This document shows, in pieces, positions 2,022-8,379 of a stretch of 32,000 nucleotides of DNA. The position numbers and the translations under genes are program-made. Numbering within the stretch: the stretch's first letter is position 1; each line of letters starts with the position of its first letter. Below the pieces are notes generated by a model. It ran no database searches, was not told where the DNA came from, and saw nothing but the letters and a program-made list of their open reading frames with translations. The DNA is from Halogeometricum borinquense DSM 11551 (lineage in GTDB: Archaea > Halobacteriota > Halobacteria > Halobacteriales > Haloferacaceae): assembly GCF_000172995.2 (NCBI RefSeq), contig NC_014729.1:1680001-1712000 (forward strand). Direction: 5' to 3'.

Positions 2022-2315
2022 CTACTCGTCGTCGCTAACAGATTCGCCGCGGAAGGCGAGGATTGCCTCCTCACACGTCTGCAGACCGTCGATTCGCTCG
2101 TTATCCGACAGTGACACTGTCTCGACGACGCTCCACCCACCACCGTCCTCGTCGAAGACGAGGCCCTTCACCCACGAGTCGGTGGCCACGATGACGCCGC
2201 TTGCGTCTCCCTCCTCTTCGATAGGACTTGCAAGTTCGAGGGCGTCCGACCGATTCAGATCCATGAGTTCCTTCGCAGACAACGGCCGCGGTGGCAGCGA
2301 TTCCACGATTGTCAT
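2022..2315 (-). CDS. Small acidic hypothetical protein
   Basis: 97-aa ORF, strongly acidic, lying 48 nt downstream (same strand) of the Usp gene's neighbour position. No recognisable motif. Confidence 0.5.
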   Translation of the reverse strand: MTIVESLPPRPLSAKELMDLNRSDALELASPIEEEGDASGVIVATDSWVKGLVFDEDGGGWSVVETVSLSDNERIDGLQTCEEAILAFRGESVSDDE

Positions 2316-2437
2316 GTCGGGTCGTCGGCCGTCGCGGTGCTTGTGCCTTCCGAACCGCCTCGGTTCGTCTCGATGACAGCGTCGTGTGCAGGGACGCGAC
2401 CAAAAAGCTTCTACCCGATTACGCGGGAGTCTTTCTC

Positions 2438-4138
2438 ATGTCATCCGGAGATGCGTCAGACGACGCCTCGGTGGGGGTTTTCGGTCTCGAATTCCGGACC
2501 GACCGCGTGACCCTCGCCGTCGTCGCGCTCGCCGCTCTCGCCCTCCTCGCTCGTCTCGTTGGTCTCGGTAGCCGCCCGTTCCACTGGGATGAGGCCCGCG
2601 TCGGCTACTGGGCACTCCGCTATCTGGAGACTGGTGCGTTCGAGTACCGCCTAATCGCAGGCGGCCCCCTCCTCTACCACCTCGACAGACTCGTTTTCGC
2701 CGTCCTCGGCGTCTCCGACATGACGGCCCGCCTCCCTGTCGCCGTTCTCGGCGCGGCGCTTCCGCTTTGCGCTCTCCTCTTCCGGGACAGATTCGACGAC
2801 GCTGAGTCGCTCGTCTTCGCCGCTTTCCTCGCGTTCAACCCGCTTTTCGTCTACTACTCGCGATTCCTTCGCGGCGACGTACCGCTCGCGTTCTTCGCCC
2901 TCGCGTTCGCCGGATTCACGCTGCGCGCCTACGACCGGCGGAGCAGACGCGACGCCTACGCCGGCAGTATCGCGCTGGCGCTCGCTTTTGCCTCTTCGGG
3001 ATTCGCTGCCGCCTACGTACTGTGTGGGGTGGTCGTCGTCATCCTCCTCGTCGATCAACCGAGTGCCGTGGTCGATGGCGGAACGTCTGCGCGCCGACTC
3101 ATCGATTCAGTGCGGTCCCGCATCGCCGGACGAACGGTTCCTGCCGCCCGAGCGTTCCTGTTGTTCCTCGGAACGACGATACTCTGCTTTGCCCCGCGCG
3201 CCGGGCCACACGTCGATGTCGGCCTCACGAAACCTACGACGTGGCATCTCGTCCTCTACGAGGCCACCGTCGGCGCGCTCTGGTCGTTCTTCGGCGTCCG
3301 CGTCGCCCACCGCTGGCCGCACTGGACGCACGAACTGTTCCCGTACGTCGGTGACCTTGCCGGAACACTCGCTACTGCTGGGCTCCCGATAGTTGTCGCC
3401 GCCGTCGCCGTCTTTGGTTGGAACCGCTACGTCTCCTCGGAGCGCCGACCGCTACTCGATGCGTTCGCTTACTGGAGCGCTGCCGCGTTCGCCATCTTCC
3501 CCGTGGCGACGGAGGTGTCTGCGCCGTGGGTGGCAATTCACGTCGTCTTGCCGCTCTCGCCGCTCGCCGCCGTCGGCGGCGCGGCCCTTCTCCGACGCGC
3601 CGTCTCGCTTGCGGGCGGCGATGAACGCGACGCAACCACCGTCGCCGCCGTCATTCTCCTGCTTCTCGCCGTCGTTGCACAGGCTGGTGCCGTCACTGCC
3701 ACGGACGTGTACGGGCCCTCGGACCGGACGAACGAACTCGCGCAGTTTGCCCAACCCAGCGACGACATGACTGCTCTCGTTGAGAACGCGACTGCAATCG
3801 CGGACGACGACCCGACGACACCCGAAGTGCTGTACGTCGGGTCGAAGTACGCTACTGCGTGGGACCCCGGCAATGAGTTCCCGCCGGTCGTAGAGAGTTG
3901 GGGTAACAGGCTTCCGCTCCCGTGGTACTTCGAGCGCGCCGACGCCGACACCGTGAGTACGAAGAATCTGACGACGTTCGATGAACGCGCGGCCAACGAG
4001 TCTACGCCGCCGATAGTCGTGTCCGAACCCGGTTTGTCCGGCGGCGTCGGCGACAGACTCGGAGACGCGTACGGATCGAAGACGTACCACCTCGGCCTGT
4101 GGGACCGCGAGGTAGTCGTTTTCGTCCGGCAGGTGTGA
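2438..4138 (+). CDS. Polytopic membrane protein of the TIGR03663 / GT-C (PMT-like) type, Agl23-like
   Basis: Track ORF 2291..4138. I place the start at the in-frame ATG 2438 (MSSGDASDD...), because the upstream extension is Arg/Cys-rich. It has many TM segments. The N-terminal block RPFHWDEARVGYWALRYLETGAFEYRLIAGGPLLYH...TARLPVAVLG...YYSRFLRGD matches my memory of the archaeal TIGR03663 family, which is annotated as flippase activity-associated Agl23 in haloarchaea. Confidence 0.75.
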   Translation: MSSGDASDDASVGVFGLEFRTDRVTLAVVALAALALLARLVGLGSRPFHWDEARVGYWALRYLETGAFEYRLIAGGPLLYHLDRLVFAVLGVSDMTARLPVAVLGAALPLCALLFRDRFDDAESLVFAAFLAFNPLFVYYSRFLRGDVPLAFFALAFAGFTLRAYDRRSRRDAYAGSIALALAFASSGFAAAYVLCGVVVVILLVDQPSAVVDGGTSARRLIDSVRSRIAGRTVPAARAFLLFLGTTILCFAPRAGPHVDVGLTKPTTWHLVLYEATVGALWSFFGVRVAHRWPHWTHELFPYVGDLAGTLATAGLPIVVAAVAVFGWNRYVSSERRPLLDAFAYWSAAAFAIFPVATEVSAPWVAIHVVLPLSPLAAVGGAALLRRAVSLAGGDERDATTVAAVILLLLAVVAQAGAVTATDVYGPSDRTNELAQFAQPSDDMTALVENATAIADDDPTTPEVLYVGSKYATAWDPGNEFPPVVESWGNRLPLPWYFERADADTVSTKNLTTFDERAANESTPPIVVSEPGLSGGVGDRLGDAYGSKTYHLGLWDREVVVFVRQV

Positions 4139-4261
4139 CTCCTCACAAGATACCAGTCCATCGAATTCAACAGATTATCCCCATCCACATCAAATTCGAA
4201 CTGGAGGATCTCTATCTCCGATTCTGCCTAACAGTCCTGTTCTTACTGATTCTAGACTCTG

Positions 4262-4702
4262 CTATCTGTTGTTTTCTCTGTCGAACTCTTTCACCTCTGC
4301 TTGTTCAATCGAAACAGTCTCTAGTAGATCAAGGGCCTCTCTGGAGATAATTAAACGATTATTGTCTGAGATACCAAAATCGTCTTGTCCCGCATCTCCG
4401 ACAATCTGCATCCAGTAGAACTCGGGGAGTTCCATGTTTGGATGTAGTTCCTCGAACTGAGGCGATTTCGAGATCGTTACGTCGTCAATTTCATATCCTG
4501 ATAGGTCGCTTGACGAGAGAGTATTCTTCAACTCCTCACTGATTACGAAATTAGATACTGTAGTCAGGAGGTCATCACCTAACCAGCCGTGAAACTCGTA
4601 ATGGAGTTTCGTTACGTCTGGTGGGTGAACAGATCGGTCCATCTCGGTTTTTTCGCCAAACTGTCCAGCAACTTCGGGTTCGATGGTATAATACTCGGTC
4701 AT
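4262..4702 (-). CDS. Candidate immunity protein of the adjacent toxin (Imm11/DUF1629-like impression, unverified)
   Basis: 146-aa acidic ORF. Its ATG (4700-4702) lies 4 nt after the TGA (4707-4709) of the upstream toxin ORF on the same strand. It is AT-richer than the backbone (my hand count for 4441-4500 is 27/60 G+C). Confidence 0.7.
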   Translation of the reverse strand: MTEYYTIEPEVAGQFGEKTEMDRSVHPPDVTKLHYEFHGWLGDDLLTTVSNFVISEELKNTLSSSDLSGYEIDDVTISKSPQFEELHPNMELPEFYWMQIVGDAGQDDFGISDNNRLIISREALDLLETVSIEQAEVKEFDRENNR

Positions 4703-4706
4703 AGAT

Positions 4707-5963
4707 TCAGTCCCTCACAGAGGGTTCGAACATATCTCCATATTTATCGTCGATCTCGGTCGCTTTGTCTAGTAGTTGTTGTTTATCTGGACTTTTGTGT
4801 TTCAAATAAAAGTCATCCCATTCTTTCCTGATCTGGCTCAGGTGTATCTCTGCGTTCAGTTCTTTGGGGATGCCCCGTAAGTTCTCCAGCGAGTGCATCT
4901 CGGAGTCAGTTACCAACTCGGGCCACAGTTGCTGTACCTGTTGTTCTACCGCGTGGTGGATTACTACCTCTCCCTCAAGCCATGGATAAGCTTCGAAGAA
5001 ATTTGTTCGATAGTCGTTTGAGCTGGCTGTTCCGAATGTGGCACTCTGGTTTTTTATTGGATGTGGTGGATGATCCCTATCACTATCTGTGAAGCGTTCT
5101 AGACTACTTTGCTTATCGGGTATACGCTGGACATGTACGCTGGCTTTCCCCATCCGGAAGATACCGAGTTTCCCACCTCGCATCACGCGGTTTGCAGTCT
5201 CCTCAGCTTCGCGTTCCAGACGCTCGTCGGGATCGATTTCGATTTCGCCCGTCTGCGGAAGCATCGATACCGCGCCACCAGTTTGTTGGCGCACGTGCGC
5301 TAACTCGTGGGCGAGAATATGCTGGCCTTCCGCCGAACTCGGATCGTATTCGCCGTGGTTGAACGCGATGTGATTGCCGACAGTAAAGGCACGAGCGTTG
5401 ATGTCTTCACAGGCTTTCGCGGCCGATGGACCCGTGTGAATACGCACGTCACCGAGGGTGTCGCCCATCCGATCTTCCATCGCGCGCTGAATCGAGCTAT
5501 CGAGTTGCTTTCCGGGCGAGGAAATCACGTCCCGAACCGAATCAGGGACGTTCGCGTCACCAGCCTTTGACGCCTCATGATGCGCGCCACGACTGCGCTG
5601 GACAGATTTAGCGTTCCGTCGTTCGACATCCTTTGGGACTTCGGCAGGACGCTGTTTTTGCCGTTCACGGAACGCACGCATGTCTCGGGGTTTACCCATC
5701 GTATCGACGGTCATGCCTTCGTCGGCCCACTGCCGAACTTGATCTGCGCCGTGTTTCTTGGCCAGTCGCTGAATCTTCGTCTCCAGCCCGTCCATGTAGA
5801 TCTCTACCCCGAAGCGAGATTCACACTCTCGGGGCGTCAGCGAACCCCCACCGCCACCACGACTCCGATTCCGATTCGAGCCTCCCGTCAGCTCTTGAAT
5901 AGACGGAACGGACGAGGAATCTTTGCTCGGAGGCGTCCGCTCGTTCGCAGACCGAAATCCCAT
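4707..5963 (-). CDS. Polymorphic-toxin-like protein: DUF4157 (HExxH Zn-metallopeptidase-like) domain plus a C-terminal HNH/colicin-DNase-like domain
   Basis: Track ORF 4707..6026 begins with TTG. I prefer ATG 5963 ([10 protein letters not shown]...), which has the box AATTATATT (complement of 5990-5998) about 31 nt upstream. ATG 5987 is an alternative. The DUF4157 signature is [61 protein letters not shown] (about 5277-5534). The C-terminal [10 protein letters not shown]...(22 aa)...[19 protein letters not shown] (about 4797-4994) parallels the colicin E9-type HH...N(I/L)R..xPK....H beta-beta-alpha-Me motif. Confidence 0.85.
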
Positions 5964-6135
5964 TCGTACCGCGAACTTGATAGCCATCCAATATAATTGC
6001 TCGCTCCTTGATTGCAGCAGGCGCAATTTTGGAGATCATGTCAGAGCCCGCCCCGCACAGAACTAGCGATTCTCCGGAATCAGCGTTTGTAGAATCAAAG
6101 CTGATGTCAAGCCCTGCGAAACAATTCAGATATTC

Positions 6136-6158
6136 TCACTCTGAAACAGTCAGAGTGA
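6136..6158. other. Perfect 9-bp stem / 5-nt loop hairpin between tfb and the toxin gene
   Basis: TCACTCTGA-aacag-TCAGAGTGA read directly from the sequence. It lies in the 320-nt AT-rich spacer downstream of the tfb stop and upstream of the toxin gene start, both on the minus strand. Function (terminator or insulator) is inferred only. Confidence 0.4.
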
Positions 6159-6347
6159 TTCTAGGAATTCGAGTCTTCTTCAGACAGTTAATCTGAACAG
6201 TGCCATCTGGTTCTTCTGGGACTCGTGAGCATCGTAATCTGATTGTCTATACTAAGAGGACTGGCGATAACGGGGCTGTTCTTCGGTTTCTTGGACGTAA
6301 AGAACCGTTCTGATCGAGATACTGGGAGAAATCCCGTCGAACTGAAC

Positions 6348-7331: not shown

Positions 7332-7431
7332 CTCTTTGTGAAAAACCATCAAATTTGTTATGGTTTTTCCAGGTGGTATTGCCCGGTCATCAGCCGATCC
7401 AATTATCCCATTATCGGTCGAAATGGGGGGT

Positions 7432-8379
7432 ATGCGCACTGGAATTGCTCTTCTCTCTATTGCCCTTCTGGTTACGTCTGGTTGTCTCGGATTTGCACCA
7501 TCCGTGTCAGACGCGGGCGCGACGCCACAGGATGTCTCGAATCAGGACGGGCCGAGTGTTCGTGTTACCGTGACAGAAGTCGTGGACGGCGATACGATGA
7601 AAGTGAAATACACGAACGGGTCGCGTGATACTGTCCGTCTGTTAGGTGTCGATACGCCCGAAGTGTACGGTTCGAACACACCGGACGAGTTCGAGGGCGT
7701 GCCCGACACTGAAGCGGGAGCAGCGTGTCTTGAAACCGCCGGGGAAAACGCCTCAGCGTACGCAAAAGCGCGTCTCTCGGGCCAAGAAGTGAGTCTCGTA
7801 TTCGACGAAACAGCCGACAGGCGGGGCTACTACGGTCGCCTTCTCGGGTACGTCTACGTCGATGGCCAGTCGTTCAACTACGACCTGATCGAGACTGGTC
7901 ACGCTCGTGTGTATGATAGTACCTTTACCGAACGTGAACGGTACCAGACGGCTGAGAAAGACGCCCGTACAGCGGGCCGCGGTCTCTGGTCGTGCGCCGA
8001 GTCGGAGTCCGGCGGGACGATGACTTCTGACGGCGACAACGACGGCAACACCACCATCGAAATCGTTCGTGTCCACCCGGATGCTGACGGCAACGACAAC
8101 GAGAATCCAAACGGCGAGTACGTCGTCTTCCGGAACGAGGGCGAGCAGGTGATTGACCTCTCAGGATGGTCCGTCGCGGACGCTGCGGACAACGAGTATA
8201 CGTTCCCGTCCGGAACGACGCTCGAACCCGATGCAGAACTCACACTCAAGAGTGGAACAGGAACCGACCGGGAGGGAACAGTGTACTGGGGACGTAACTC
8301 GGCGGTGTGGAACAACGGTGGTGACACGATCACGCTCCGAGATGCCGATGGCACTGTCGTCCGCGAACGTCGCTACTAA
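7432..8379 (+). CDS. Secreted lipoprotein: thermonuclease (SNase/micrococcal nuclease) domain plus C-terminal lamin-tail domain (LTD)
   Basis: Start moved to ATG 7432 ([20 protein letters not shown], a signal peptide with a lipobox Cys). SNase motifs are VVDGDTMKV...[10 protein letters not shown]...[28 protein letters not shown]. The LTD is [65 protein letters not shown]...[18 protein letters not shown]. Confidence 0.9.

Follow-up and report, generated by a model that had tools for sequence, protein, structure and literature searches.

A strain-variable toxin module in Halogeometricum borinquense DSM 11551 with a G+C step at the boundary between a DUF4157 trunk and a predicted exchangeable toxin/immunity cassette

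A 32,000-nt stretch of Halogeometricum borinquense DSM 11551 (contig NC_014729.1, positions 1,680,001–1,712,000; here called the window) contains Hbor_17540, a gene with a DUF4157 domain, followed by the small open reading frame (ORF) Hbor_17530, referred to as the partner. The two genes very probably constitute an accessory module that varies between strains and encodes a polymorphic toxin together with its cognate immunity protein. In this module the C-terminal toxin domain (CT) would make up, with the immunity gene, a cassette that travels apart from the conserved N-terminal trunk, and in which a step in G+C content marks the boundary between trunk and cassette. An initial annotation of this DNA had noticed the G+C breakpoint inside the toxin ORF and read it as a signature of cassette replacement at the domain junction. 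The features concerned are listed below with their overall G+C content and, for the trunk, the G+C content at third codon positions (GC3); lengths are given in amino acids (aa).

4133–6343: accessory island with the toxin and partner module; 2,211 bp, G+C 0.507.
4707–5963, minus strand: toxin gene Hbor_17540, 418 aa from ATG 5963, a predicted DUF4157/PVC-metallopeptidase polymorphic toxin.
5124–5963, minus strand: conserved N-terminal trunk, aa 1–280 of the 418-aa form, with 75–90% aa identity to H. borinquense and Haloferax paralogues; G+C 0.588, GC3 0.607.
5274–5507, minus strand: DUF4157/eCIS_core/PVC-metallopeptidase domain PF13699, aa 174–251; E=2.3e-31, 108.2 bits (cut-off 22).
5124–5138, minus strand: junction motif VHVQR, aa 297–301 of the 439-aa ORF, at which the trunk ends, G+C changes and homology stops.
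4710–5123, minus strand: variable CT, 138 aa, of a family without a Pfam model; G+C 0.460 (over 4707–5123).
4842–4958, minus strand: putative His-Me/HNH-like core, H56-H57 to H94 of the CT.
4262–4702, minus strand: partner gene Hbor_17530, acidic, 146 aa, starting 4 nt past the toxin stop codon; G+C 0.449.
5964–6343: 5′ intergenic spacer; G+C 0.468.
4139–4261: 3′ intergenic spacer; G+C 0.439.

The toxin was an exact protein match to Hbor_17540 of DSM 11551 (ADQ67322.1, 439 aa; also record WP_394295391.1), of which the RefSeq form has 418 aa and starts at ATG 5963. This ATG is probably the true start and the 439-aa form from TTG 6026 an over-extension, because the sequence MGFRS is conserved in paralogues and nucleotide homology begins only 30–50 nt upstream. 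Public records hold three versions of the protein, of 439 aa (TTG 6026), 418 aa (ATG 5963) and 362 aa. The HExxH motif was intact as HELAH (window 5295–5309, aa 240–244 of the 439-aa ORF, read from the translation). Scans of toxin and partner with Pfam, NCBIfam and PADLOC gave only PF13699 above thresholds, which is thus the sole Pfam domain matched in Hbor_17540, and no PADLOC match for the toxin.

The single-line G+C counts made by hand in the initial annotation were all exact on recount (60-nt lines 5221–5280, 37; 5641–5700, 35; 5041–5100, 26; 4981–5040, 26; 4741–4800, 23; 4861–4920, 33; 4441–4500, 27). A 500-nt profile showed a trough of 0.45–0.50 at 4000–5250 compared to 0.59 in the window (mean 0.595), with neighbouring genes at 0.62–0.68. 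The maximum-likelihood change-point in the ORF 4707–6026 (minus strand) was located at nt 902, corresponding to aa 301 and window 5124, where G+C fell from 0.582 to 0.459, and an equally strong step was seen in 0.1% of 2000 codon shuffles of the ORF (p=0.001). The change-point for GC3 only was found at aa 296 (window 5138; 0.61 to 0.48) with an underpowered scan statistic that was not significant (p=0.17), and direct contrasts and a comparison of 45 related loci were therefore used instead. In Fisher tests GC3 differed between trunk and CT (p=0.021) and between trunk and CT plus partner (p=0.004). Both change-points lie in the codons of VHVQR, and the low G+C content runs on into the partner gene and both spacers. 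The proposed breakpoint was confirmed.

Host expectation was derived from the codon usage of 16 ordinary genes in the window. Under this codon usage the amino acids alone predicted a G+C content of 0.624 for the trunk and 0.558 for the CT, and G+C at second codon positions (GC2) went from approximately 0.45 in the trunk to 0.2–0.3 after the junction. Roughly half of the 0.127 drop in G+C was accounted for by amino-acid composition and roughly half by synonymous choice. GC3 was 0.607 in the trunk compared to 0.721 expected (z=−4.4), and 0.486 in CT and partner compared to about 0.74 expected in each (z=−7.2). Since GC3 drops from trunk to CT, synonymous sites share in the step. The DUF4157-encoding part, which had been taken for backbone, was indeed richer than the CT (0.588 versus 0.460), but it did not reach the GC3 of host genes.

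A search with the full-length protein gave 1,199 homologues, the best being paralogues from H. borinquense and Haloferax with 75–90% identity (88–90% for the top ones) over only about 64% of the query. They were 364–760 aa long, and some carried other C-terminal Pfam domains behind the trunk, among them GH-E, deaminase and colicin D. A set of 119 homologues showed 50–90% identity up to VHVQR and was unrelated beyond it; the ends of their best high-scoring segment pairs clustered at residues 280–285 of the 418-aa form, where the aligned fraction shrank over a span of 20 residues from 0.97 to 0.27. The motif xH[VI]Q[RW] was present in 103 of 120 homologues, 57–58 aa past HExxH, and behind it 21 CT clusters were found among 102 proteins and 10 among the 17 from H. 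borinquense, so that no fewer than 20 CT families without mutual relationship share this trunk. Nucleotide homology to six trunks from three genera stopped at window 5115–5170; within DSM 11551 this comparison comprised one paralogue (L061), in addition to other strains and genera. An identity drop had been predicted at about aa 300–330, and it was found at aa 297–301 in the 439-aa numbering, at the low end of that range. The small downstream ORF clusters paired one-to-one with the CT clusters, in agreement with the expectation that unrelated C-termini would each have their own small downstream ORF. The homologues were thus not conserved from end to end together with their downstream ORF.

The syntenic region was retrieved from four H. 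borinquense assemblies by way of the TFB protein encoded next to the island, the sequence of which does not differ among the strains. In GCA_004150395.1 (L054) the site was empty, with an unrelated 86-bp spacer (G+C 0.62) between the TFB and Agl23-like genes. BLASTn comparison of the window strain (L055) with this strain showed flanks with 99.6–99.8% identity and the island missing. One end of the island lies 4 nt past the TFB stop codon, and the other falls within the final sense codon of the Agl23-like gene 2291–4138 (window 4133–4138). At these ends only chance-level direct or inverted matches of 12–17 nt were found, and a transposon-like element was rejected for want of terminal repeats above chance.

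GCA_040679015.1 (L056) and CP048739.1 (L053) contained at the same site a different, 666-aa DUF4157 toxin, the trunk of which showed 82.5% nucleotide identity, followed by an Imm49 gene (35.9 bits), a truncated toxin of the window type and the 146-aa partner. This orphan toxin has lost its first ~400 nt, with the break at window ~5565. When orphan and window copy were compared in 40-nt blocks, CT and partner were 99–100% identical (8 mismatches in ~860 nt), and trunk identity was 95–97% at 5162–5242, 82–88% at 5282–5442 and 65–82% at 5482–5562; the chromosomal flanks of the window strain and L056 were 93–100% identical. Cassette identity of 99–100% against trunk identity of 65–88% shows that trunk and cassette have different histories even at one locus, and the alignment places a recombination breakpoint in the last part of the trunk, at about window 5240–5280. 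Part of the 5′ spacer (6130–6343) was common to L056 at 97.7% identity; the spacer 5964–6343 presumably holds the promoter. Orphan CT/partner cassettes, which had been predicted to occur, were thus found in L056 and L053 at the same site, and also in L057, L058 and L059; none was found in the window itself.

Some further differences between the strains were observed at this locus. The Agl23-like glycosyltransferase ends in ...RQV* in the window and in ...RQS* in the empty-site strain, and the 86-bp spacer of the latter (L054:7959–8044) holds a tandem CGATTCTCCGCT repeat. In CP048739.1 neither the 666-aa toxin nor the orphan is annotated as a gene, though the DNA is 99.7% identical to that of L056. 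The TFB gene is adjoined in all four strains by a gene outside the island that is predicted to encode a staphylococcal-nuclease and lamin-tail protein (PF00565, PF00932; window 7360–8379).

The cassette was also found in other hosts. Photobacterium sp. GJ3 contains a CT homologue with 54% identity followed by a 139-aa ORF with 44% identity to Hbor_17530, and this pair belongs to an array of orphans that follows an S-type pyocin gene. Conservation of CT and partner together in this bacterium indicates that the two are transferred jointly between domains of life. Two contigs from brine metagenomes (L058 and L059) carry a relative of the pair (79% and 71% identity) as an orphan behind a 542-aa DUF4157 toxin with its own partner, and this orphan keeps the trunk end '...EETANRV...VHVQR'.

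As regards the surroundings of these copies, the Photobacterium array (L060:697–9040, CP073579.1) has two identical-looking triplets (CdiI_5-like protein, 53-aa ORF and ankyrin protein) after Pyocin_S, then the CT homologue and its partner, and then Colicin_Pyocin and Imm31-like immunity genes. On both brine contigs an HVO_A0114-type winged-helix protein (PF25212, E 4e-26; L058:4612–5511, L059:3194–4096) directly follows the orphan pair and overlaps the end of the partner; it possibly acts as a regulator or belongs to a mobile element.

The composition step was not confined to the window. In each of 45 related loci, drawn from Haloferax, Natrinema and Halohasta among others, the trunk had a higher G+C content than the CT, with means of 0.634 for the trunk, 0.627 for genomic flanks, 0.564 for the CT and 0.541 for the downstream ORF. 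Mean GC3 was 0.727 in the trunk versus 0.599 in the CT and higher in the trunk in 44 of the 45. CT and partner were also poorer in G+C than three different hosts, namely 0.46 and 0.45 versus about 0.62 here, 0.45 and 0.39 versus about 0.57 in the brine archaeon, and 0.40 and 0.37 versus about 0.47 in Photobacterium. A step present in every one of these loci is a standing mark of the trunk/cassette boundary and not a dated scar.

A word-indexed search with the CT gave 179 homologues and an exhaustive profile search gave 1,224 representative clusters, always at the extreme C-terminus of proteins of 121–1,842 aa. They were mostly bacterial, and their trunks contained RHS repeats (one with a type VII secretion system (T7SS) signal), DUF6443, LysM, PT-HINT or DUF4157/eCIS_core. 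Homologue P0127 opens with the Rhs junction '...WVDPLGL', P0277 and P0365 are also Rhs proteins, and P0126 and P0135 retain the haloarchaeal trunk end '...EETAxRV...VHVQR'. The CT showed 55–65% identity to bacterial copies versus 51–63% to other haloarchaeal copies linked to DUF4157. Pfam search of 38 family members gave stray weak matches only (ARPP-2 in six, E>=0.003), besides PT-HINT on one trunk.

Invariant residues of the CT were Y38, H56, H57, E60, N81-L-R-G-I-P86, N90, H94, W102 and F105, H56 and H57 corresponding to aa 357 and 358 of the 439-aa ORF. An AlphaFold2 (AF2) model (pLDDT, predicted local distance difference test, 88.6) showed a strand at 53–57 (VVIHH), a strand at 82–86 (LRGIP) and a helix at 87–108 containing N90 and H94, and this predicted strand-strand-helix layout would correspond to that of a beta-beta-alpha-metal (HNH/His-Me) site. 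The named weak matches of the model in Foldseek were mostly HNH or homing endonucleases. Only 12 homologues were found for Hbor_17530. Imm11 (PF07791) was matched by 3 of 14 members of the partner family (best E 4.4e-6), and P0254 has PF07791 in its precomputed annotation; Hbor_17530 is predicted to be a cognate immunity protein and a divergent Imm11 relative. Imm11 was listed by Zhang et al. (2012; PMC3482391) as partner of the HNH-fold toxins Tox-AHH and Tox-SHH. Because of the motif, the predicted beta-beta-alpha layout, the run of weak HNH matches and the link to Imm11, we consider it rather likely that the CT is a His-Me nuclease neutralised by an Imm11-like protein. Compared to Tox-AHH and Tox-SHH, the CT shares the 'xHH ... 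N ... H ... Y/W' pattern, the predicted strand-strand-helix core and a partner family that touches Imm11, but it has invariant 'HHAVEQ' and 'NLRGIP' blocks of its own.

We propose that the toxin would consist of a constant DUF4157 trunk of ~280 aa and an exchangeable 138-aa CT that starts right after VHVQR. CT and immunity gene would form one cassette moving between loci and species and between bacteria and archaea, and this cassette would be joined to trunks, or displaced from them, by recombination through the trunk homology upstream of VHVQR, while repeated recombination with paralogous trunks may hold the trunk near host composition. The DUF4157 trunk would load the toxin onto the contractile injection system (CIS) of H. 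borinquense, which resembles a type VI secretion system (T6SS), for delivery to neighbouring haloarchaea; CIS delivery of Hbor_17540 is judged fairly probable. In the target the CT would act as a His-Me-finger (HNH-like) nuclease, and sister cells would be protected by the Imm11-like partner binding to the CT. More tentatively, and with somewhat less than an even chance of being right, haloarchaeal DUF4157 effectors may diversify through a 'C-terminal displacement' cycle like that of Rhs. In such a cycle new toxin and immunity DNA would enter by recombination in the homologous trunk, and the former tip would stay on as an orphan, truncated at its 5′ end, that can be re-activated; there would be a cassette pool shared with bacteria, a step kept by biased gene conversion among trunk paralogues, and an xH[VI]QR motif, 58 aa past HExxH, serving both as recombination boundary and as the site at which the DUF4157 metallopeptidase cleaves itself and sets the tip free.

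The interpretation of the step as the result of cassette exchange is supported by the collapse of homology among trunk homologues, the co-variation of CT and partner, the orphans, and the near identity of the cassette beside a divergent trunk. A different explanation is that the module arrived whole, in which case the trunk-CT fusion and the step would have formed elsewhere and the 2.2-kb island would have entered as one piece, with no local replacement in the DSM 11551 lineage. Such an arrival would fit the absence of the island from one strain, its abrupt boundaries, the GC3 of even the trunk being under that of host genes, and the step in all 45 related loci, which makes it older than any single locus. 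However, when L056 is compared with the window strain, identity is 99–100% in the cassette but 82–88% and then 65–70% in the adjoining trunk, with 95–98% in the chromosomal flanks, so at least one of the two lineages has recombined its trunk in place (~5240–5280), and L056 and L053 show displacement at the same site. Whole arrival is unlikely on these grounds, and it differs from cassette exchange solely in the place of the event. It is doubtful, although conceivable, that the step is kept mainly by GC-biased gene conversion or homogenisation of trunk paralogues, with single-copy cassettes drifting to an AT-biased mutational equilibrium, and does not stem from a low-G+C source outside the host. 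Trunks at the G+C content of the host flanks in the 45 loci (0.634 versus 0.627), cassettes below host G+C in each of three very different hosts and the trunk mosaic between strains all speak for this, but a CT with 55–65% identity to bacterial copies argues for real lateral transfer. Lateral origin of the cassette and homogenisation of the trunk are compatible, and both may contribute.

An explanation of the step by protein function alone, in which CT and partner need AT-rich codons (for K, N, I, F, Y, D and E) and have no separate history, was found highly improbable. The G+C content predicted from amino acids alone (0.624 versus 0.558) and the fall in GC2 would cover about half of the drop, but GC3 drops as well (0.607 to 0.486; p=0.02 and 0.004), as it does in 44 of the 45 loci, and homology patterns and strain comparisons give separate histories independent of composition. 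A pure artefact of amino-acid composition was accordingly rejected on the GC3 results and the identity contrast between trunk and cassette. Equally little credit was given to the possibility that the genes are an intracellular toxin-antitoxin or abortive-infection pair and not a secreted weapon. The close spacing of the two genes (4 nt) in one operon on an accessory island would suit such a pair; no signal peptide was noticed, and Zachs et al. (2024; PMC11566945) name neither protein as secreted. On the other hand, PADLOC gave no match for the toxin, the DUF4157 trunk marks CIS cargo and five paralogues with the same trunk are secreted in a CIS-dependent manner in DSM 11551, the CT family occurs on secreted Rhs, T7SS-signal and PT-HINT trunks, and the partner is linked to a polymorphic-toxin immunity family. 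The toxin-antitoxin or defence reading was rejected on trunk type, the trunks of CT homologues, the Imm11 link and the PADLOC result.

Several results weigh against the module being an exchanged cassette with the proposed function. Being family-wide, the step cannot show that replacement occurred at this locus in this lineage; the initial reading of it as a replacement signature therefore stands as regards the boundary of an exchangeable cassette but not as proof of recent local replacement. Amino-acid composition accounts for about half of the step. One ORF family of ~320 aa lies downstream in 37 of 47 related loci regardless of CT cluster, which makes a strict rule of one CT to one immunity protein unfit for the whole DUF4157 family. 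Neither Hbor_17540 nor Hbor_17530 is named in the text and examined supplements of the secretome and toxicity study of Zachs et al. (2024), and no CIS Pfam families were found on genes within ~8 kb on either side of the module. The window CT and 38 family members gave no match to an HNH-clan Pfam model at E<=1, the CT-family profile gave none among PDB sequences at E<=10, and Foldseek of the CT model gave none that was significant (best E 1.3 in PDB and 0.18 in BFVD, viral). Hbor_17530 itself matched PF07791 weakly (E 0.17, 11.7 bits, cut-off 22.1).

Members of the downstream family common to the 37 loci were mostly ~300–345 aa and without a Pfam match (for example L002:7509–8459, with equivalents in 36 other loci within L002–L050), and many of the CTs preceding them resemble glycine-zipper membrane toxins (for example L007). 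A role as general immunity protein or as loading adaptor is conceivable for this family.

Zhang et al. (2012; PMC3482391) described PVC-metallopeptidase proteins as polymorphic toxins with a constant N-terminal peptidase and variable, recombining CTs, present in euryarchaea, and found archaeal toxin and immunity domains nested within bacterial radiations. In a discussion of archaeal genome islands, Makarova et al. (2019) called DUF4157 a signature of polymorphic toxins, and Geller et al. (2021; PMC8213781) tied it to CIS toxins. Zachs et al. (2024) showed that a membrane-bound, T6SS-like CIS of H. borinquense kills Haloferax volcanii on contact, that five DUF4157 proteins are secreted only with an intact sheath, three of them encoded off the cluster (Hbor_01880, 02990 and 07690), and that toxicity in H. 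volcanii is seen with several DUF4157 proteins, for which the gene downstream provides neutralisation. Hbor_17540 and Hbor_17530 resemble this PVC-metallopeptidase CIS cargo in the HExxH-containing DUF4157 N-terminus, the variable C-terminal toxin, the downstream immunity gene and the euryarchaeal host, and the secreted and toxic effectors of that study (Hbor_02990, Hbor_38900 and others) come from the same species and have the same trunk. The trunk of Hbor_17540 was 78% identical to P0016, which is probably Hbor_02990 as judged from a primer in the supplement of PMC11566945. Unlike that cargo, the pair lies far from any CIS cluster, the cluster of DSM 11551 being located elsewhere (Hbor_38xxx, PMC11566945), and its CT family has no Pfam model.

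Rhs and contact-dependent growth inhibition (CDI) systems likewise have a constant core, a junction motif (PxxxxDPxGL or VENN; here VHVQR), and a variable tip with an immunity gene. For Rhs, Jackson et al. (2009; PMC2935791) described C-terminal displacement, in which dissociated tips keep a core fragment and are delimited by a G+C peak; here too displaced tips persist downstream with a core fragment, core and tip differ in G+C, and Rhs proteins (P0127, P0277, P0365) carry members of the same CT family. In contrast, the trunk of Hbor_17540 is a small metallopeptidase domain in which Pfam detected neither RHS/YD repeats with PxxxxDPxGL nor an FHA/CdiA trunk with VENN, and delivery would presumably be by the archaeal T6SS-like CIS. 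Furthermore, the displacing DNA in L056 carried an entire toxin gene and not just a tip, and the older copy lacks 400 nt at its 5′ end. The resemblance to Rhs and CdiA is therefore one of mechanism (junction motif, displacement and orphans) and not of family membership.

The modular trunk/cassette principle is already published for archaea (Zhang et al., 2012; Zachs et al., 2024). The suggestion in the initial annotation that the process also operates in this archaeon is supported by displacement at strain level, but it is not new. Strain-level displacement and orphans, the VHVQR boundary and the family-wide step are not reported in Zhang et al. (2012), Geller et al. (2021) or Zachs et al. (2024). 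The additions made here seem to be the Hbor_17540/Hbor_17530 pair, a large CT family for which Pfam has no model, the xH[VI]QR boundary, a composition rule followed in 45 of 45 loci, and evidence of displacement and orphans at strain level in archaea.

It was not until 2024 that contact-dependent antagonism was demonstrated among archaea, in H. borinquense, and the effector repertoire is barely charted. The locus adds the candidate effector/immunity pair Hbor_17540/Hbor_17530, with a CT from a family of more than 1,200 representative clusters that is common to bacterial Rhs and other toxins. Natural strains with an empty site, with one cassette, and with an orphan plus a new cassette provide material for studies of effector turnover and of strain compatibility among haloarchaea; if the displacement cycle is true, kin discrimination at strain level in haloarchaea would be open to study with H. 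borinquense strains having 0, 1 and 2 cassettes. The xH[VI]QR motif together with the G+C step offers annotators a simple marker of where the trunk ends and the cassette begins in such genes.

A second low-G+C island (0.42–0.52) was observed at window 26500–29200. It contains two adjacent ORFs on the plus strand, 26745–27992 (415 aa) and 27995–28999 (334 aa), neither of which had a Pfam or PADLOC match. Both start with Tat-like signals (SRRSVLKCLGATAL and SRRAVLALGGTVG, respectively), and their GC3 values were 0.39 and 0.45 compared to about 0.74 expected (z=−16 and −12).

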